64,000 bases of DNA from a virus. Its lineage: Duplodnaviria > Caudoviricetes. Shown in pieces: positions 3,001 to 59,376 of the stretch (the first letter of the stretch is position 1; each line of letters starts with the position of its first letter). The notes under the pieces are model-generated. The model saw only the letters and a program-made list of their open reading frames with translations, made no database searches and had not been told where the DNA came from. The DNA is taken from IMG/VR virus record IMGVR_UViG_2617271113_000004, positions 64,001 to 128,000 of that record, one strand, 5' to 3'. The position numbers were made by a program, and so were the translations under genes.

Positions 3001-6000
3001 TTCTATACCATTTATCTTGCTCAGCATTTAATAATCCTGTTGTTTGATAAACATTCATATTAATTTCTGCTGTTTCCCTGCCTTCCATAACCCCTAGGCT
3101 AAATAAGTCTTGAAAATCTTGAACCCCTTGAGGTAAACCAGTTTCACCAAAATGCATAATTCCTAATGCATGATCTTGATATTCTCTATTGCTCAAAGAT
3201 GCGGATATATTTGACCAGAAACCTTTCGAATCTGTAAGTAACTCATCTACAATTTCAGTAGGTTCTTTTTTAGAACTCAAAAATCCACTTGTATCATCTT
3301 CAGGATCTATATCCATCATTGCATTTAATTTATTCGTTAATTCGATTCCGTCATCTTGAGCAATCATTGTCATAGTTGCACCGTTATTTTGAAGACTTGT
3401 AATGGTTCCGTTCATGATTGTAGGTAAATTTGCAGCGTTTGAACCATACCCCATGCGCATATGAACTCTTACACCAGTTCTTAAATAAATACTTTTATAA
3501 TAATTTGGATCTCTGTGTCTACTGCGTTCCGTTTCCTTAGCAACTGCCCCAGGCATCATAGCTGCCAAGAATAAGTCTCCAAAGCTAGAGTGTGTAATGT
3601 CTTGCGCTTTCTCGTGATCGTCTAATGATCCAAACACGTTGCTTAATTCACACACTAAGGTGCTAGAAGCTTGTTTTCTACTGTTATTGTAGGTAATATC
3701 AGTAACCGCTCTATAATGAAAATACTGATCTGACATTTTAGCAGTACCTATAAACTGACCTTCATCTATAAATGTCATGAAAAATGTTGGGAAAGCACGT
3801 ACTAATCTACCCCTTCGATCATGCTTTAACATATCCGTCATCATACTTGCTTCAGATATTTTACTTCCGTTATCCGCATAGGATTCCTCATCAGATCTAG
3901 ATAACTGATCAATAACTGTTTTATCATAATCATCTACGATTACAGCTTTATAATCTTTAATAGGTAATTTATCATACTTTGATTGAATAGTTTCGTAATC
4001 CCATGATTCCGTGTTATCCAAAGTGTTTATCATGTTATTAATTTGATTTACTAGACGCTTATTTGGAGCTTTATTATTTTTTAACAAAGCAGTTAGTTCC
4101 CGTTTAAAGTCTAGGTAAAGTAACACCGTACAAATAAACTGTACTTTCTCTGCGTCTTCAGCTGATGAAGGAGACAAATCAAATAGATCGTATACACGGT
4201 CAATGTTGTATTCCCCATCGTTCATAATCGCCTCTGATGATCCCCAGTAGTAAGAGAAATAACGCATCCCTAAATCTACGTTGTACTCTATACTGTTGCG
4301 TATGTGTTTCTTTTGATCTGACTCCCCATATTTACCCCTAACTCTCATTACTCCTATATACTTAGGGTTGGATTGATATTTATAATTCAGGTTTTCATCT
4401 TGCATAATAACCTGTCCTTTACTTCCTACTTTGACACCATCTAGTTCTTGATTTAAACCGGCATTATAAAAATGTCTCATATTTGGATCAAACGATTGAA
4501 CAAATGCTGTAGGATACTTTCCCTTTATGCCATACACAGAAGCAGACTTTCTGATCAACGCTTCCATGTTATCCTTGGTTAAATTATCGTTATCAACTTC
4601 TTTAGAAATATCTGCACTTGGTGATATATTAGGCATCTTTTCTTCAGAAAGACTCTTTGTTTCATCCCTCTTTTGAGTAGCAACTTCGTCTAAGGAATAA
4701 CCACTATCATCTAAAGTAGCAGTTCCTCCAGTAGCATCGTATAAATCAATCTGACCTGCGCCTTCTAAAACAGATCTATTTAATATCTGTGCAAAGTCTC
4801 TTTCGGTATCATAGTTTATAAAGAAGTCAGGGTCTACAAAGAGTCCATCATTTGTGTTAATTACACTAAATCCAGCTTGCTGCACTTCATCATATGTGGG
4901 TAATTCTAAATCTGGATATAATTCCGCTGCTTTGAAAGTTTCAAGAACCCATGCATTATAAATTGCTTGATCATTAGCATCATTACTCACCCCTACTGCA
5001 TTTTTAATCTTCTTAAAACCACTAGTAATATTTTTGATAAATGGTGGAATGCCATTCACTAAATCAATATCCCAGTTTAAATCTAATGTCATTGCATTTA
5101 TTTCATGCATTTTCTTTTCTGCTCGATTGTATGCCATTAATGTAAGATTAACATCATATACACCAGGCATCCCATCAACAGTATCTACAGTCATATCATC
5201 AATAACTACATTTGTGACTCCATATAACTTTGCTATTTGATGATTGAATTGCAGAAACCCATTAGCAACTTCTTTATGATATTCACGAGTTAGATACGAT
5301 GTCCGACGAACTAAGTTCTCTAAACTAGCTATAGCTTCCATATCTGTGCACTGGAAGCGTGCAACCATTACAGTATCTTGTGAACCTAAGTATTGATGAG
5401 TTGGGGACTGATGCATCTGTAATTGATTTGATGTAATCGAATTTTCGAAACTAATGCTGAAGTCTTCCAGATGCATGTTACCTAAAGACCATGATTCATA
5501 ATGTAAATCATACTCATACATTGCTTTGCTATATAAATCATCATACGCCTCATTGAACTCTTCTTCCTTAGCATTATCACCAAATTTGACTCCGCCATCT
5601 TTACTTACTTTTACTTTCAGCCAATCATCAAAACTTAAGTCATTCTTATCGCTAGTCCATTCTTTTATAAGTTCTTTCTTTTGTTTATTCCACTCTCGAA
5701 TTGCCTGAAGATCGTCTTCTGCTGCAATTTTAAATATATAATCATTTGTTAATTCATCTGTTAACGGTTCAAAATAAGTTAAAACACGTTCTGCATCTGC
5801 ACCTTCACCTTTAGTCATTGATTTATATAAGGCAGACGCAACAGGGTCTTTAACTGTTGTTTTATTTAAATGCCTTTCATAATACCACCTGAACATTGGC
5901 CAATGAAACATTTCATCAAAACTTCTTTCACTCGTTCCATATATATAAGTAGCAGGTTCAAAAGCATAACATTGTATAATAGCTTGTAATGTATTAGGAA

Positions 6001-50215: not shown

Positions 50216-50237
50216 TCCCTATTTCTCCCTCCAGTAT

Positions 50238-50271
50238 AATATGTTTAAATTGTTAACATTTTGAACATATT
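50238..50271. promoter_or_regulatory. 34-bp imperfect palindrome, candidate parC/operator
   Basis: AATATGTTTAAATTGTTAACATTTTGAACATATT between promoter and parM RBS. Confidence 0.6.
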
Positions 50272-50274
50272 CCT

Positions 50275-50303
50275 AGTTTACCTATAAATGCTGATAGATG
50301 CAA
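50275..50303 (-). promoter_or_regulatory. SigA-type promoter of the partition operon
   Basis: TTGCAT-17 bp-TAAACT. Confidence 0.55.
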
Positions 50304-50314
50304 GTATTACCAAT

Positions 50315-50344
50315 AAAAAAGCACCGCTTTTTGCGATGCTTTCT
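50315..50344 (-). terminator. Probable terminator ending the tRNA cluster transcript
   Basis: AAAGCATCGC-AAAAA-GCGGTGCTTTTTT on the minus strand. Confidence 0.55.
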
Positions 50345-50577
50345 TTAGGAAAAGGAAGGATAATGGAATTTTAGAGCTTGCAGCTCTTTTAAAGAGCCTA
50401 GGAAAACAGGGAAACCCAAGCTCCTTAAAACAACTGCAAATCGATATGGACAGGAACTAAAGAGACATCAAATATTAATATTAACGATATATGAGATAAA
50501 ATGAAAGGAGTGTAATATGAATGAAAGATAGTCTCTTTAGCCCTATTCCTATATCAAGGCAAAGGGGGTAATAGTTG

Positions 50578-50641
50578 TGTTCTTGACTGGACTCTCACCA
50601 GTATCTCTTGTGACAAGCGCATTAACTTATACTACAAGAAC
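50578..50641 (-). ncRNA. tRNA-like RNA with a truncated anticodon arm
   Basis: Acceptor GTTCTTG/CAAGAAC, D arm GTAT/ATGC, T arm ACTGG-TGAGAGT-CCAGT; anticodon arm only CTTG-TCA-CAAG. Confidence 0.6.
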
Positions 50642-50732: not shown

Positions 50733-50807
50733 TCTCGATAGCAGGACTTGAACCTACGACCTCTGCGTCCCAAACGCAGCGCTCTACGCAAACTGAGCTA
50801 TATCGAG
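50733..50807 (-). tRNA. tRNA-Pro (TGG)
   Basis: Full cloverleaf; anticodon arm CTGCG-TTTGGGA-CGCAG; T loop TTCAAGT. Confidence 0.93.
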
Positions 50808-51610: not shown

Positions 51611-51685
51611 TGGCTGAGTAGGTAGGATTCGAACCTACGACTAACCGGTTAACAGCCGATTGCTCTACCGCTGAGCTACTACTCA
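51611..51685 (-). tRNA. tRNA-Asn (GTT) with encoded CCA
   Basis: Full cloverleaf; ATCGG-CTGTTAA-CCGGT; GGTTCGAATCC. Confidence 0.95.
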
Positions 51686-53713: not shown

Positions 53714-53896
53714 CTATTTGTAAATCTTACTACGATCTATTGGCACTATTTTAGAATAGCCATAACCTAAATCGATTATCTCTGAATTGTTCCTCAAGTC
53801 TACAGAACCATTTTCTACTAAGCGTTCATGCAGTGTTTTCTGTTCTGTTTTCTTTCTTCTGATGTATGTAGGCTTCTTCCCGTTTTCCATATACAA
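53714..53896 (-). CDS. Hypothetical protein
   Basis: RBS AGGAGG; 58-60 aa. Confidence 0.55.
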   Translation of the reverse strand: MYMENGKKPTYIRRKKTEQKTLHERLVENGSVDLRNNSEIIDLGYGYSKIVPIDRSKIYK

Positions 53897-53937
53897 ATCC
53901 TCCTTTTTATTTTCATTTATTCTTATTTAGACCTAAG

Positions 53938-53951
53938 TGTAATGCATTACA
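53938..53951. promoter_or_regulatory. Palindromic operator-like site, copy 3
   Basis: Perfect TGTAATGCATTACA just downstream of minus-strand GTGACT-17-TAAACT. Confidence 0.65.
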
Positions 53952-54040
53952 AATAGTTTATCTTACTCTGAATTTAAAGTCACTACCTAAACCTGGGGAA
54001 AAACCCTTATAGGGGAAAATTTCTAAAAAAAATTGCTCGG

Positions 54041-54067
54041 GGTACTACCTTTTATATAGGGAGTTTT
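54041..54067 (+). promoter_or_regulatory. Candidate phage-RNAP promoter motif GGYACTAC-N4-TATATAGGG, copy 1
   Basis: At the strand switch upstream of the first plus-strand ORF; 22/27 match to an inverted copy at 60346-60372. Confidence 0.45.
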
Positions 54068-54122
54068 CCAGGGCGTTTGTAGCCCCCACCCCTAACAAAC
54101 TATTAGAAAAGGATGATGAACA

Positions 54123-54302
54123 ATGCAAACAGTATCATTAGTAAACTTATTCAACCAATTAAAAGGATCAGGCAAATGTATCCGATTCGGTGACTTAATG
54201 AAAAGAGGATTTAATGCTGATCTAATCAAGGTAGCTGTAGAGAGATGTGAGATCGAACTAGGATTAGATGGAGAAGGATACACCATTGTTGTATTTAACT
54301 AA
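54123..54302 (+). CDS. Small hypothetical protein (59 aa, MQTVSLVNLF...)
   Basis: RBS AAAGGA; open frame read manually, absent from the ORF track. Confidence 0.6.
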   Translation: MQTVSLVNLFNQLKGSGKCIRFGDLMKRGFNADLIKVAVERCEIELGLDGEGYTIVVFN

Positions 54303-54305
54303 TGA

Positions 54306-54374
54306 ATCGAAACACCTTTCAAGAAAGGAAGGTGTATGCAGGACATGACCACCCTGTACTGATGAGATAGGTCA
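54306..54374 (+). ncRNA. Hammerhead ribozyme, type II with pseudoknot
   Basis: ATC-GAAA-CACCTTT..GAAGGTG-TA^TGCAGG..CCTGTA-CTGATGA-GAT; loop I TGACC pairs with 3' GGTCA. Confidence 0.85.
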
Positions 54375-54424
54375 CACTATTGTCCAGCTCATGACATGAA
54401 ACCGAGCATTAGAAAGGAGTCAAT

Positions 54425-54910
54425 ATGACTACAACGAGCATGAATAAGGATGCACTAACTACTGTACTAGCAGGTGCAAAGGAAGGAGTCAATAAGATAA
54501 AGAAGTCAAAACGATTTGAATCCATAGTTGAGAAAGCAGGTGTTGCATTAGGTAAAGCATACCGTGCAACAGAAGCTTTTATTAAAGGACATTGGAAGAA
54601 TGCTGCGCTTGCCACAGCTACAACAGTAGGTGCTGGTGCGATAACCACTGGGCTAGGCAGTGCGTTATGCGCAGGCGCCTTACTATATGGTGGCATAAAG
54701 ACACTAGCCTACTACCTAAGCCATAAACAGGTGCGATTCAAAGATGCAACTATCAATTTGTTTATTGAAAGTAGTATTGGATTCGTATATGGCATGGGCT
54801 TACTACTTGCTTATCTAATAGGTGGCACATTGCTAATCACGCTATCTGCTGAATTGGGACATTTCCTAGCTGCTAACTGGATGTATGTGCTGTATCTACT
54901 AGTAGGTTAA
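54425..54910 (+). CDS. Multi-pass membrane protein
   Basis: RBS AAAGGAG; 3-4 hydrophobic helices. Confidence 0.7.
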   Translation: MTTTSMNKDALTTVLAGAKEGVNKIKKSKRFESIVEKAGVALGKAYRATEAFIKGHWKNAALATATTVGAGAITTGLGSALCAGALLYGGIKTLAYYLSHKQVRFKDATINLFIESSIGFVYGMGLLLAYLIGGTLLITLSAELGHFLAANWMYVLYLLVG

Positions 54911-55143
54911 TAGCCTTGTAGTGTACCTCTGCCCCTCTCTATAGCGACACATCACATAGCTACTATAGAGTGTATGAACAGCTAGGTGATCGATAGGTGT
55001 TGTACATGCCCTGCTCTATCGTCAAAGAGATAATCATGTGCCTGTAGTGATTCCTGTAGAGTAACCGCTCGTCATTACAGAAGCTTTATATGTAATACCA
55101 ATCAATTAGATTTAAAACAAATTAATCATTGGAGGAATTTAAA

Positions 55144-55251
55144 ATGAAAAACTTATTAATCAAATTCGTACAACAGGACGCTACAGATAAGAAGATTCAA
55201 CTTGTATTCGTTGGAATGTTAGCTTTTCTATTCTTTGCACTAACACACTAA
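55144..55251 (+). CDS. 35-aa single-TM peptide
   Basis: RBS GGAGG; MKNLLIKFVQQDATDKKIQLVFVGMLAFLFFALTH. Confidence 0.55.
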   Translation: MKNLLIKFVQQDATDKKIQLVFVGMLAFLFFALTH

Positions 55252-55273
55252 AAAACAATTGGAGGAATGAACG

Positions 55274-55477
55274 ATGGACGTAACTTACAAACAATTAATT
55301 CTCGAAGGAAAATATCTTGGCTACTGTGGTCATATGGGATACCTGTATTCCATCTTTGTTAGATATGACGAGAAGGAACAGGAAGTATATCAAATCTATG
55401 GTGTTCATGGAAATGCGTTACATTTTCTTATTGAATATCCAATACTACGAAAGGAGCATGATGTAGATGAACTATAA
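55274..55477 (+). CDS. Hypothetical protein
   Basis: RBS GGAGG. Confidence 0.6.
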   Translation: MDVTYKQLILEGKYLGYCGHMGYLYSIFVRYDEKEQEVYQIYGVHGNALHFLIEYPILRKEHDVDEL

Positions 55478-55850
55478 TATGCCAACTGGAAGATATGTTG
55501 AATTATACGTCAAAGAAATCTTCAAAGAACTGTTTGAAACAACTTATGTTGAAGCAACAAAAGAAGATGATCTATATCGAGGGACAGACTTCTTCATTGG
55601 GTCTGTTCCTATTGATGTAACCATTAATGAAAGTAAAGATCACTGCAAGTTAATTAAGAAGTATTTATTGGATGGCGTTACAGTCTCCGTGTCCAAACGT
55701 AACCGTAACGCCAGGGTAACATTCGAAAGACCAGTATTAGTCTTTCATTTTGATCTGTACGATTTGCGAGATCGTATGCAGATCTGTGAGTTAATCGATG
55801 AATCACTCACACAAGACATTATAACAGAAATCTTAGGCCTTTATAAATAA
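55467..55850 (+). CDS. Hypothetical protein, possible PD-(D/E)xK-like fold
   Basis: E...D...GTDFFI..IDVT pattern; RBS AAGGAG. Confidence 0.5.
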   Translation: MNYNMPTGRYVELYVKEIFKELFETTYVEATKEDDLYRGTDFFIGSVPIDVTINESKDHCKLIKKYLLDGVTVSVSKRNRNARVTFERPVLVFHFDLYDLRDRMQICELIDESLTQDIITEILGLYK

Positions 55851-55869
55851 GGCTAACCACAAAGGAGAA

Positions 55870-58800
55870 ATGATTACTATGAAAAATCAAACTGCGACTG
55901 TATCAAATCAATCTAACCAAACTAAAGGAGATGTTATTAAAATGGAAAATCGTACAATGTTAAAAGAAAATGGTTATCTATACACTGTTCAGGACATTCT
56001 TGCTGCCCTATCTAAATCAGAAGGTTTCAAATCACGTGATTCAAAGAACTTTGCTCGTGTACTAAGAGCAATGTCAGAAGGAAAGGCATTACTTGATATC
56101 TTAGCTAATCCGTCACTAGCAGGAGTACCGAATAATCAAGTTCGGTACTTTACTGAGTTTGTAGAAAACAACAAACTAGCAAAACGTGTATATAAACCAA
56201 CACGTAAAGGTGTACTTGTTCCAATTGCTGATATTAATCTAATGGAAATGCAAGAAGATAAAGTATACTCAACAATTGATTATTCTGAAGTAAATGTAGA
56301 CTCTTATAAAGAGATTAGTGAATCGTTCTTGAGTGAAACACTAGCTTCTACACCAGAGATGATTGAGTTTACTCGTAATGGAAAACTTATTAAACAACGC
56401 ATGATGCTTCCTATGCGTCATGTCTTCTTCGTGAGCTTAGGCTTGGAGCTCCCTGAAGAAGAAGCGGACTATGATCAGGAAGACTTTGATAATATTCATC
56501 TTCGTGAACGAGTAATGAAAGATGGATTTTATTTTACAGACGAAAATGGTGAAGAAGGACATGCTTACTTCTTCTTACGCACTCCATCTCAAGCACGTGT
56601 GTTACAAGCAGTCTTTATTGATACAGCTTTCATGTCCCCTGTTCAAGCGTTAAAACTATTAGGTCATGAATTAATTGCTTATGGCTCTCAAGATAATGAA
56701 GGCAATTATGTTGTTAAAGTAGACAAAATGATTACTCGTCCAGGTCTAGCTGGTACAAATACTGTTGCTTCTAAGACAGTTGATATTGGAAATATCGTGG
56801 AGATTAATCATAAAGGTGAACAACGCTTAGTTGGTGGTGTGCATACCCTACGTGTTGTAGAAGATAGACAAGTTGAAATTAAAACAGGTACGTATCGTGC
56901 TTGGGACAAAGAGAAACAATGCTTTAAAGAGTTTGATGCAAATGAGCATCCGATCTCACTAACAGCAGCAGATGGTGCGATCTTCTGTGATGAAGAGATT
57001 TATCATACACTTGGTGCAGAGTTCGGTCAATTTAACGATGCATGGCAAATTCGCATTACTCCATTTGTTAAAGGTCTTATGGTGTTCGTGCCAAATCTAC
57101 GTGCTTACTATGATGATCATATTATTGCATTTAAGTCTGCTGTTAAAGGTGACTTTGCTAATCTAATTACAGCTAATCCTGACTTCAAACCACAACTACG
57201 TATTGCTATGTTTAACCGTAATCTTAATCAAGAAAAGACGTATACGGATATGCCTTATCAATTTGTACAAGCTTCTTCACTAAACACAAGTGACCTATGG
57301 AAAGTTATGAAACCACACTTAGAAAAAGTAGGCAATGCATTACACGATCCAAGTATCATGAAGAAATATGTAGGGCTAGATAAAGTCATTGATGCTGATC
57401 TATTCGATCAGGAAACAGAACACTACATGATTGATCAGTCTCGAGTATCAACGTTTACTTCGTTCTTAGATATGTTTGATTGGACTTATGAAGATGTGCA
57501 TATGAAACGCTATGCATTAGATGTGCTCAAAGAAAAGATTGCTGATTGGAAAACCGGCAATGTGCCTGTAGAAGGACATTATCGCTATTTAATGCAAGAT
57601 CCATATGCTGTACTAGAAGCTGGTACAAAGTATACCGTTCGCAATGAAAATGGAGATCTAATGATAACAAATCGTGGATCTTATCACATTCAACCAAACG
57701 AAGCATTTGTCCCATCTGCTCATGAACATAAATCAAATGTCTATGTAGCAGCTGGACGTAACCCAATGATTGCAAAAGGTGAGTGGCAAGTGGTCCGTCA
57801 TCGCCCTATCGATATGTATAACCGTGCTTATAAGAAAGGTGCTTTCCGTAACATTACACTTATGAGTGTGCATGACATGAGACTATTTGCTATGGGTGGA
57901 GCTGACGTTGATGGAGATACTGCACTAACTGTAACAGATGAAACAATTGTACAAGCATTAAAGCGTAAAGAAACTTCTCCAGTAATGGATATCTCTTTTG
58001 TTGAGAAAGATGGCAATATCGAATTCTTAGGAGATGGTGTTCCTTATTCAAAAGAAATGACTGGTGTATATCGTATGCCAGAACACTTAGTAGACAAGCA
58101 AAATAATTACAAGATCACATTTACAAAAGAACAAAATACAGATGAACTCTATGAAGAGGTTCATAAGCTAGGTGTTGATTATGTCATACGTACATTAAAG
58201 CCAAACAAAATTGGTATTGCTACTAACATTGCATCTATCTTGGCAGATGCTGTTCGTGGCTTAGGCTATGACTTATATTTGAATAATGTATCTCAAGATC
58301 AAGTAATGACTACGATTAAACAGTATGAGAACTGGATTGACATCCTACGCTTAGTACAAGGTTGGGAAATTGATGCAGCTAAACATGGTGGTGCCTATCA
58401 AGAAGTCATGAAAGAAACATTAGACTTTATGGATAACCCACCTGAATCATTATCATATCTACACAAAGGTCTTGGTCGTCGTGTATGGAATAAGCCTAAT
58501 TGGTTAGCAGCACGTGTTGGAAAGAAAGGTCATGATCTGGGGTCTGTGTTGTCACGTCTTATGGATCTTGTTCAACAATTCGAAGACAATATGTTAACGA
58601 ATGAATTGGAAAGAATGCATCTAGAAGCAGATAGCTTTTCTCTGTTAGCTAAACTAAACAGTGCATTCCAATTAGATCCTGCTTACTTTAATGAGCTTGC
58701 TAATCATGTAAAACAATTAAAAGCTTCTTATGGTTCAGCTGTTCGTAAGACACATCAAGCAGCTCAAGATAAGAAGCAAGTTATTATTGAATCAAATACA

Positions 58801-59376
58801 CCTGATCATATACGTGATCTCCAATTTGAAGAAATTGAAGTGAAGTTAAACAACTATATTGGAGACATCGCAGATATGGCTCGTGATAAGATTGCAGAGC
58901 TTATGAGTATGTATCCAGCTAAAGATATTGGATATGTATCTTACTATGTAACATATGTAGATCGTAAGAAAGAAGCATCTCTCTCTTTCCCATGGACTGT
59001 AGCACGTGAAGCATTTATTCAGACACTTTCTTATGTGGAGAATAAAGAGAAGCAAGATCAACTTACTGCGAATGAAGTTGTAGACAATAATATTACACTT
59101 GCTGTATGTATTCCTGATGCGATTCAAGAGCAGTTTACAATGGAGAAAGTATTAGAAGGATTGCATAAGCAACCATCATTCATTCAAGCTGTAGGTGATA
59201 AGTATAGACTAATCATTGGTCAAACTGAAGTAGGCTTTGTATTTAATTCAGCTAAGAATATTAAGTCACTTCTAGGTCATGATAAGTATGAACTTAATAT
59301 CAGTACGTCTACACCTGGCCGTGGAACACGTACAGTTAACCTAGAAGTGAATGAACTAATCAAGATAGGAGCCTAA
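55870..59376 (+). CDS. YonO-like single-subunit DNA-dependent RNA polymerase (cellular RdRP-related)
   Basis: RTPSQAR, DGAIF, WQIRITPFVKG, GRNP, MGGADVDGD, KIGIATN, EIDAAKHG. Confidence 0.88.
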   Translation: MITMKNQTATVSNQSNQTKGDVIKMENRTMLKENGYLYTVQDILAALSKSEGFKSRDSKNFARVLRAMSEGKALLDILANPSLAGVPNNQVRYFTEFVENNKLAKRVYKPTRKGVLVPIADINLMEMQEDKVYSTIDYSEVNVDSYKEISESFLSETLASTPEMIEFTRNGKLIKQRMMLPMRHVFFVSLGLELPEEEADYDQEDFDNIHLRERVMKDGFYFTDENGEEGHAYFFLRTPSQARVLQAVFIDTAFMSPVQALKLLGHELIAYGSQDNEGNYVVKVDKMITRPGLAGTNTVASKTVDIGNIVEINHKGEQRLVGGVHTLRVVEDRQVEIKTGTYRAWDKEKQCFKEFDANEHPISLTAADGAIFCDEEIYHTLGAEFGQFNDAWQIRITPFVKGLMVFVPNLRAYYDDHIIAFKSAVKGDFANLITANPDFKPQLRIAMFNRNLNQEKTYTDMPYQFVQASSLNTSDLWKVMKPHLEKVGNALHDPSIMKKYVGLDKVIDADLFDQETEHYMIDQSRVSTFTSFLDMFDWTYEDVHMKRYALDVLKEKIADWKTGNVPVEGHYRYLMQDPYAVLEAGTKYTVRNENGDLMITNRGSYHIQPNEAFVPSAHEHKSNVYVAAGRNPMIAKGEWQVVRHRPIDMYNRAYKKGAFRNITLMSVHDMRLFAMGGADVDGDTALTVTDETIVQALKRKETSPVMDISFVEKDGNIEFLGDGVPYSKEMTGVYRMPEHLVDKQNNYKITFTKEQNTDELYEEVHKLGVDYVIRTLKPNKIGIATNIASILADAVRGLGYDLYLNNVSQDQVMTTIKQYENWIDILRLVQGWEIDAAKHGGAYQEVMKETLDFMDNPPESLSYLHKGLGRRVWNKPNWLAARVGKKGHDLGSVLSRLMDLVQQFEDNMLTNELERMHLEADSFSLLAKLNSAFQLDPAYFNELANHVKQLKASYGSAVRKTHQAAQDKKQVIIESNTPDHIRDLQFEEIEVKLNNYIGDIADMARDKIAELMSMYPAKDIGYVSYYVTYVDRKKEASLSFPWTVAREAFIQTLSYVENKEKQDQLTANEVVDNNITLAVCIPDAIQEQFTMEKVLEGLHKQPSFIQAVGDKYRLIIGQTEVGFVFNSAKNIKSLLGHDKYELNISTSTPGRGTRTVNLEVNELIKIGA

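Follow-up and report, generated by a model that had tools for sequence, protein, structure and literature searches.

The 64,000-nucleotide stretch of DNA analysed here (the window) comprises bases 64001-128000 of IMG/VR record IMGVR_UViG_2617271113_000004, a 191,052-base provirus that is 97% complete by CheckV and is the genome of a giant Bacillus-type phage. In this window a rightward gene block holds, in its first intercistronic gap, two neighbouring RNA elements: a type II hammerhead that is very probably a genuine self-cleaving ribozyme and, beginning 5-6 nt past it and ending 3 nt before a ribosome-binding site, a 27-nt H-type pseudoknot that we call the pseudoknot leader (Table 1). The latter is the new element. 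Both of its helices covary, it has no Rfam match, and nearly the same sequence is present in phages, integrative elements and tombus-like RNA viruses; on this comparative evidence it is a well-supported structured RNA that stands in no catalogue. The sole relative found for this genome is a 194,705-base contig (NZ_QWEH01000007.1, locus label L001) from the assembly of Oceanobacillus profundus DSM 18246, whose host group is thus the Bacillaceae; it was sought with the 1168-aa protein encoded downstream (69% identical in the two) by protein-pattern scans of viral, metagenome-independent and genome collections. Window and L001 are near-identical from the end of the ribozyme to the ribosome-binding site. 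In a blastn search none of 50,697 phage records matched window positions 53800-56000.

Table 1. Features of the window and copies of the pseudoknot leader at other loci; positions are those of the window unless a locus is named. ORF, open reading frame; S1 and S2, the two helices of the pseudoknot leader.
Feature	Position	Strand	Evidence
H-type pseudoknot leader, 27 nt	54381-54407	+	covariation in both helices; single strong copy in genome
Pseudoknot leader S1, UGUC/GACA	54381-84/54393-96	+	covariation
Pseudoknot leader loop CAGCUCAU; its GCUC pairs with GAGC (S2)	loop 54385-92; S2 54387-90/54404-07	+	covariation
Pseudoknot leader spacer, UGAAACC	54397-54403	+	sequence
Pseudoknot leader copies elsewhere	L001 4625-4651; L036 6003-6031; L006/L165/L171/L176; L012-L034; L146-L182		
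Type II hammerhead ribozyme	54306-54374	+	core, stems and pseudoknot read in sequence; RF02276 match; covariation with L001
Hammerhead stem II, open, 3 bp, ATC/GAT	54306-08/54366-68	+	sequence
Hammerhead GAAA, G12-A15.1	54309-12	+	sequence
Hammerhead stem III (hairpin III, 54312-54335)	A54312-U54335 and 54313-19/54328-34	+	sequence
Hammerhead cleavage triplet, GUA	G54334-U54335-A54336; A17 (H17) at 54336	+	predicted cut 54336/54337
Hammerhead stem I, 6 bp, one G.U (hairpin I, 54337-54358)	54337-42/54353-58	+	sequence
Hammerhead CUGAUGA, C3-A9	54359-65	+	sequence
Hammerhead pseudoknot, 5 bp, loop I TGACC/3' tail GGTCA	54346-50/54370-74	+	sequence; exact complement
Perfect 14-bp palindrome TGTAATGCATTACA	53938-53951	.	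identical in L001 (alignment A6)
Promoter-like box CCTTTTATATAGGGAG	54048-54063; TTGCTC at 54034-39	+	upstream of 59-aa ORF; conserved with L001
59-aa ORF, first cistron	54123-54302	+	36/56 residues identical to L001 ORF
Shine-Dalgarno sequence AGAAAGGAG	54411-54419	+	3 nt past pseudoknot leader, 5 nt before ATG
161-aa ORF, putative membrane protein	54425-54910	+	hydrophobic C-terminal half; 43/126 aligned residues identical to L001
1168-aa ORF, YonO/RdRP-type two-barrel polymerase-like	55870-59376	+	Pfam PF05183, 34.1 bits (cut-off 23.8)

The general form of the pseudoknot leader is S1a-CA-GCUC-AU-S1b-N2-4-AAACC-GAGC. Copies were collected by a relaxed word search in which the S1 positions flanking CAGCUCAU were left free, so that the search did not constrain them. 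Among 43 distinct 29-mers (alignment A7) the three nucleotides on each side of the loop pair in 43/43, 43/43 and 39/43 sequences, the middle pair being UA in 25, AU in 16 and CG and GC in one each, and the covariation score was reached by 0 of 500 shuffles. A model built from this alignment (R2) found 83 copies in 63 sources, which make up 50 distinct rows. Here the inner S1 pairs form in 50/50, 50/50 and 46/50 rows (one of them as UA in 29, AU in 18, CG in two and GC in one), while S2 pairs in all 200 of its 200 cells and includes double changes from G-C to A-U and from C-G to U-A, two rows each; none of 500 shuffles attained the observed score. The G.U pairs of S1 are compatible with this strand only, and the most conserved nucleotides of the whole element are the unpaired CA, AU and AAACC.

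Explanations of the site as a DNA element were rejected. A repeated phage promoter is at odds with the single copy in the genome and with the 16 of 62 contexts in which a Shine-Dalgarno (SD)-like sequence follows after 0-6 nt, which would leave almost no leader, and both the G.U pairs and the covariation point to RNA. A palindromic operator of the form TGTC-N8-GACA was discarded because many other sequences occupy these positions, changing together as the two sides of a helix do. There is also no support for identity with the antiterminators conAn of pLS20 or canT of Tn916, the latter being described in PMC11658703 as a 452-nt region. Rfam gave nothing over 54381-54407 at E ≤ 10 in a scan of 281 nt or at E ≤ 5 in a scan of the window; the 281-nt scan at E ≤ 10 returned Hammerhead_II and a 12-bit sroH match and no other family. 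There were likewise 0 gathering-level matches in 20 further pseudoknot loci and none at E ≤ 1 in the locus of Bacillus phage vB_BceM_WH1 (below). A literal text search of the literature for the pseudoknot strings, a kind of search that does not extend to figures and supplements, gave unrelated primers only.

Exact-word scans for the pseudoknot core found it in four further IMG/VR stretches and 23 metagenome stretches, and 41 IMG/VR stretches were found when one loop was relaxed; three exact-word hits (L003, L005 and L037) look like coding sequence, lack the remainder of the motif and were set aside as chance. The genome of the window carries one strong copy (47 bits). One copy was counted in the O. 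profundus assembly, five were counted in a 158-kb phage contig and one in phage WH1, where the pseudoknot precedes gp127. In low-GC DNA contexts the pseudoknot is co-oriented with the next ORF, and it lies right after either a promoter-like CTCCTTATA(T/A)ATAG box or the stop codon of the previous gene. Besides the 16 contexts mentioned above, an SD-like sequence follows 7-20 nt downstream in 8/62 distinct contexts, and none occurs within 30 nt in 38/62; the direct juxtaposition of pseudoknot and SD seen in the window recurs in other phage copies. The genes that follow the copies are mutually unrelated. Judged by these contexts, the pseudoknot is used 5' of genes in Firmicutes-type phages and in integrative mobilisable elements.

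The assignment to integrative mobilisable elements comes from the genes of an operon typified by locus L016, in which FtsK-like, Rep_OBD/RepB, MerR-type excisionase-like and tyrosine-integrase genes follow. L016 belongs to a family of metagenome loci; at its positions 3921-4476 a 148-aa sigma-70-region-4-like gene lies between two copies spaced ~525 nt apart, an arrangement also present in L014, L015, L017, L018, L020, L024, L026 and L028-L033. At some of these loci AAACCGAG of the second copy can pair with a downstream CUCGGUUU that is followed by U's, a terminator-like alternative.

The GC-richer short IMG/VR contigs that carry the pseudoknot are RNA viruses (tombus-like). Ten of their neighbouring proteins matched Viral_coat (S domain) in four cases, RdRP_3 in one and a phage scaffold protein in one, and four had no match. 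In L167 (1571-1720, minus strand) three to four tandem copies stand between a 467-aa polymerase-side ORF and a coat gene (Viral_coat S domain), and tandem sets of two to four copies per locus also occur in L149, L152, L180 and L181. In the extra tandem copies S2 takes the compensatory forms GUUC/GAAC and ACUC/GAGU. The pseudoknot was found in none (0) of 108 loci that match a hammerhead pattern (912,852 nt; see below), and no hammerhead of the window's type was found in the other pseudoknot loci (30 sources searched), so the pairing of the two elements appears particular to this phage lineage.

The preliminary description of this DNA, made from its letters alone, had reported an intact type II hammerhead with a loop I/tail pseudoknot and a cleavage site after 54336, and direct reading of positions 54100-54600 bears this out: every core nucleotide, the three stems, the exactly complementary TGACC/GGTCA and the GUA triplet at 54334-54336 are where it placed them, although the site itself is predicted from sequence. 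The core C3-U4-G5-A6-N7-G8-A9 and G12-A13-A14 is present as CUGAUGA and GAA (54309-11), and all 11 of the 11 invariant core positions are kept. The topology is that of type II, with loops closing stems I and III and stem II open (the match to the Rfam model is full length, model positions 1-66); the A15.1-U16.1 pair is A54312-U54335, and the triplet GUA is of the N-U-H form. C54320-G54327 could add one more pair to stem III. The G.U pairs are compatible with the plus strand only, and no ORF of at least 30 aa overlaps the element on either strand.

Rfam's Hammerhead_II model (RF02276) matches 54305-54376 over its whole length (E = 3e-4 in the 281-nt scan, E = 0.071 over the 64-kb window), and no second match at E ≤ 10 turned up in the 191-kb genome, but the score of 29.3 bits falls under the gathering cut-off of 37 bits. 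This model leaves the pseudoknot unscored and has a stem I consensus unlike that of the element. In its minimum free energy (MFE) fold, 54303-54378 forms both hairpin III and hairpin I (-19.5 kcal/mol, z = -2.2; 7 of 200 shuffles were as good), and the MFE fold of the L001 hammerhead again contains stems III and I (-21.8 kcal/mol, z = -2.2). Since RF02276 is also matched in control genomes, its score alone is not proof, and it is the comparison with the relative that carries the case. The syntenic sequence L001 4553-4622 matches RF02276 at 24.4 bits, and a covariance model built from the window sequence and its proposed structure (R1) finds it at 40.2 bits (E 8.5e-7); apart from L001 no score exceeded 18.4 bits in 30 sources with 293,797 bases.

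The two hammerheads were aligned by fitting them to R1 (alignment A5), as MAFFT alone misaligned them, and each pair was checked by eye. Of the 23 pairs, which include the pseudoknot and C3-G8, standard pairs fill 45/46 cells; in slid controls, in which partners were shifted by 1-3 columns, 30-52% of cells pair. Four compensatory double changes separate the window from L001: A-U to G-C in stem II, U-A to C-G in stem III, C-G to U-A in the pseudoknot, and C3-G8 to U3-A8. Two further pairs in stem I change on one side through G.U and keep their pairing. The L001 core reads UUGAUAA, so that its sole two core changes are the joint change of C3 and G8; its cleavage triplet is GUC, and its loop I/tail pseudoknot is TTGACT/AGTCAA, 6 bp. 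Identity between the hammerheads is 48/70 aligned columns, compared with 64% for the 59-aa ORF and 34% for the 161-aa ORF on either side, which suggests that the changes in the ribozyme are those that a constrained RNA fold allows.

Type II hammerheads in which loop I forms a pseudoknot with the 3' tail are reported to be very common in bacteria and common in prophages; many lie near integrases or prophages, and stem II often has as few as 2 bp (Perreault 2011, PMC3088659). The same paper describes prophage genes flanked by hammerheads, from which its authors infer processing of long phage transcripts, and several natural examples of C3-G8 to U3-A8 covariation, a variant active in vitro. We scanned IMG/VR with the hammerhead-shaped pattern CGAAACACC..GGTGT..YTGATRAGA and obtained 109 stretches, of which 80 were listed; 89 distinct matches, the window and L001 among them, were counted in the viral loci that were compared. 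Stem I has at least 4 bp in 85/89, loop I and tail are complementary over at least 4 nt in 43/89, and the core strand is CTGATGA in 82, TTGATGA in six and TTGATAA in one, which is L001. At H17, C is the commonest nucleotide with 73 matches, followed by A with 12, G with three and T with one. In L110 (7744-11029), L102, L054 and L097 three to five such matches lie within a few kb of one another, an arrangement comparable to the ribozymes that flank prophage genes. The window element shares with the RF02276 prophage hammerheads the core, the capped stems I and III, the very short open stem II, the loop I/tail pseudoknot and an intergenic site in a phage-type genome, as well as U3-A8 in its relative; it differs in its score below the cut-off, in its GUA triplet, in being a single copy per genome with no gene-flanking pairs, and in the second conserved pseudoknot directly 3' of it. 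It is thus an ordinary member of a known, phage-rich class that is overlooked at default Rfam thresholds.

What the pseudoknot leader most resembles are RNAs that resist 5'-3' exonucleases. Coremin, an Xrn1-resistant motif of plant and fungal RNA viruses, reads GUCCGAAGACGUUAAACUAC and is described (PMC10520033) as a hairpin (hp1) of ~4 bp with a loop YGAD/YGNNAD, a spacer of 8-10 nt and a second hairpin (hp2); loops of 7 and 8 nt occur, and the motif lies in intergenic regions, 3' untranslated regions, repeats and tombus-like viruses. In common with coremin and xrRNA_C, the pseudoknot leader has a GUC/GAC stem, a loop with C as its first nucleotide and A plus a non-C nucleotide as its last, a ..U-N-AAAC.. 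spacer, and intergenic, tandem and tombus-like virus occurrences; its spacer (A)UNAAACC, in the window copy, agrees with coremin GUUAAACUAC at 7 of 8 positions after GAC, a resemblance only. It differs from coremin in its 8-nt loop CAGCUCAU, which has A rather than G at position 2 and lies outside YG(NN)AD, in the pairing of the loop centre with a downstream GAGC where coremin has hp2, and in its presence in bacterial DNA phages and integrative elements as well. Folding and locus comparison showed no conserved hairpin 3' of the pseudoknot leader. Because of the octaloop and the pseudoknot in place of hp2, the element was not assigned to coremin.

The exonuclease-resistant RNAs (xrRNAs) of luteo- and tombus-like viruses have a pseudoknot from a loop to downstream sequence and lie in intergenic regions, 5-20 nt before the start sites of coding subgenomic RNAs (PMC6299227). 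They and the pseudoknot leader are alike (PMC6299227, PMC12397905) in the pairing of a hairpin loop with downstream sequence a few nt before a coding start, and in a proposed role of making or protecting the 5' end of a coding RNA; the viral elements are larger and have other conserved sequences, and the pseudoknot leader copies match no Rfam family. A literature search found no paper on xrRNAs in phages. Phages are mentioned neither in PMC6299227 nor in PMC12397905, the text of which contains 0 occurrences of 'phage'.

From these features we infer the following course of events, from transcription of this strand through catalysis to the stability of the products. A plus-strand transcript carrying the 59-aa ORF would fold into the hammerhead and likely cut itself between A54336 and U54337. 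As loops close stems I and III, the upstream RNA with the 59-aa cistron would have at its 3' end hairpin III, then UA bearing a 2',3'-cyclic phosphate; the downstream RNA would start at nucleotide 1 with hairpin I and a 5'-OH, its loop still able to pair with 54370-74. It is plausible that cleavage uncouples the first cistron, as the preliminary description had it, by separating its fate from that of the rest of the operon, from the 161-aa ORF through the polymerase-like gene; a ribosome terminating at the 59-aa stop codon would briefly block folding of the hammerhead, which could couple the two processes.

The further idea that a 5'-OH in itself stabilises the downstream mRNA is doubtful for a Bacillaceae-type host, since in Bacillus subtilis RNA with this end is an RNase J1 substrate: the 5'-OH product of the glmS ribozyme is rapidly degraded by this enzyme in the 5'-3' direction (Collins 2007, as cited in PMC3328962). 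Because a 5'-OH invites RNase J1, any protection would come from structure, that is, from the flush stem I and the covarying pseudoknot at 54381-54407. RNase J1 entering at the 5'-OH would be held off by the flush hairpin or would trim the RNA until the pseudoknot stopped it, and the outcome would be a short, stable, translatable leader like the promoter-proximal pseudoknot leaders of other phages and integrative elements. A precedent is the flaviviral xrRNA, which is reported to block bacterial RNase J1 in vitro (PMC5760640). By analogy, the pseudoknot leader might be an exonuclease guard of the new 5' end, a suggestion that we make tentatively. The more specific proposal, that the hammerhead makes an exonuclease entry site and the pseudoknot is a natural xrRNA that stops the enzyme before the SD, the two forming a two-step 5'-end maturation module, we regard as rather doubtful.

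A number of observations weigh against the joint reading of these elements as a working ribozyme and guard. Both hammerhead scores, 29.3 bits for the window and 24.4 bits for L001, are below the RF02276 cut-off, and at E ≤ 10 this model also matches 11 of 14 control genomes, in none of them above the cut-off. The hammerhead covariation comes from two sequences, in an alignment fitted to a structure derived from the window and so favouring that structure, and the GUA triplet is less usual than GUC (H17 is A in 12/89 pattern matches). A simple sigma-70 consensus scan called no plus-strand promoter; in the gap that separates the 59-aa ORF from its downstream neighbour it called no terminator either. 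The helices of the pseudoknot leader have just 3-4 bp each, its guard role is an analogy to motifs of which it lacks two coremin-defining features (the loop consensus and the second hairpin), and its occurrence elsewhere without the ribozyme means that the two elements are not an obligate pair.

There is an appreciable chance that the pseudoknot leader is not an exonuclease block but a riboswitch-like or protein-binding regulator, a recruiter of ribosomes or a self-cleaving ribozyme of very small size and new class, in which case the hammerhead would do no more than place it close to a 5' end or detach it from the preceding cistron. Its conservation is highest in unpaired nucleotides, as it is in aptamers and ribozymes, and the smallest pseudoknot aptamers are built in the same way. 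The preQ1-I aptamer, for instance, is likewise a very small H-type pseudoknot: P1 is short, the loop forms pairs with the 3' end, and an A-rich tail lies between them. Its conserved nucleotides differ from those of the pseudoknot leader. The position directly before an SD-like sequence in many copies and the terminator-like AAACCGAG/CUCGGUUU and U run of some integrative elements would also suit a regulator, and a spread over DNA phages, integrative elements and RNA viruses is typical of small ribozymes too. However, the terminator-like alternative exists in few contexts only, the unrelated downstream genes include no consistent ligand-related ones, and use by bacteria-type as well as eukaryote-type viruses speaks for a mechanical role that does not depend on the host.

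Alternatively, an active hammerhead could lower expression of the operon, with the 5'-OH leading RNase J1 to destroy the message and so limiting the membrane protein and the polymerase-like gene. The fate of glmS products in B. subtilis and the Bacillaceae host of the relative are in line with this, and the glmS/RNase J1 pathway has in common with the system proposed here self-cleavage in the 5' region, a 5'-OH product and a host group with a 5'-3' exonuclease. It involves a different ribozyme class, however, and in the window there is no sign of a ligand, and the new end is structured and then followed by a pseudoknot, so that the outcome may be protection rather than decay. We consider such a down-switch improbable, given that the new 5' end is paired from its first nucleotide (by sequence and in the MFE folds), that two pseudoknotted structures conserved in both phages follow, and that a constitutive, message-destroying ribozyme would be an odd way of setting a level. 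Finally, a hammerhead look-alike or a decayed, non-cleaving descendant, its hairpins serving as a protein-binding or RNase III site or as a spacer between cistrons, would account for the low scores, the control matches and the restriction to two sequences, but is very unlikely in view of the fully kept invariant core, the L001 core change being a paired one cited as natural and active in vitro (PMC3088659), and the covariation of a tertiary pseudoknot that would have no role in a plain hairpin.

The genomic setting agrees with the preliminary description, which put the hammerhead between the 59-aa ORF and a membrane-protein gene upstream of an RNA polymerase gene; the ORF coordinates, the hydrophobicity of the 161-aa product and the PF05183 match all bear on this. 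Genes run leftward until ~53896 and rightward from 54123, and the rightward block begins at a divergent regulatory region whose intergenic sequence is conserved with L001. The layout there, TTGCTC-N16-TATAGG / CCTTTTATATAGGG box, is conserved as well; the CCTTTTATATAGGGAG box appears promoter-like and resembles the CTCCTTATA(T/A)ATAG boxes ahead of the pseudoknot leader elsewhere, and the palindrome TGTAATGCATTACA looks like a candidate repressor operator. Downstream of the CCTTTTATATAGGG box come a small hairpin, also conserved, and GCCCCCACCCC (54076-54097), and phage WH1 has CCCACCCCTA, similar to GCCCCCACCCC, ~25 nt before its pseudoknot. The stop codon of the 59-aa ORF lies 3 nt from stem II in the window and 1 nt in L001. 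Neither the 59-aa nor the 161-aa product has a Pfam, PHROG or NCBIfam family match.

The 1168-aa protein has GGAD.DGD at residues 676-683; tblastn against the 50,697 phage records gave one weak hit only, and a PDB sequence search gave nothing meaningful. YonO is described as a single-chain two-barrel polymerase that transcribes the SPbeta late genes from one start site (PMC5467207), and the 1168-aa protein is a candidate for a very divergent single-chain RNA polymerase of this kind, for which the label RNA polymerase is reasonable; the label 'first early transcript' in the preliminary description is conjectural. Elsewhere in the window, three transfer RNA (tRNA) genes lie on the minus strand at 50578-50641, 50733-50807 and 51614-51685 (46-71 bits), and at Rfam gathering thresholds the whole window yields two tRNAs only. 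A 360-nt non-coding stretch beside them (50216-50577) has a weak, sub-threshold GcvB-like match. L001 carries at 1-443, on the minus strand, a GOLLD RNA (RF02032, 195.8 bits) that is cut by the end of the locus and adjoins two tRNA genes; no GOLLD match was found anywhere in the genome of the window, though tRNAs are present at the syntenic place.

Taken alone, the hammerhead adds a further example to a class whose frequency in prophages has been on record since 2011, and the window and L001 together give a clean natural swap of C3-G8 for U3-A8 between relatives. The pseudoknot leader would have wider consequences. If it does guard 5' ends, bacterial phages and integrative elements would have in it their first element of the xrRNA type, and the near-identical sequence in tombus-like RNA viruses would mean that one mechanical RNA device serves in hosts of different domains. 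RNase J1 has been called an enzyme that xrRNAs 'never naturally encounter' (MacFadden 2018, PMC5760640); if the pseudoknot blocks RNase J-type and Xrn1-type enzymes alike, xrRNAs would cease to be peculiar to the RNA viruses of eukaryotes, and such a block would give a simple reason for a phage to place a ribozyme ahead of the pseudoknot.

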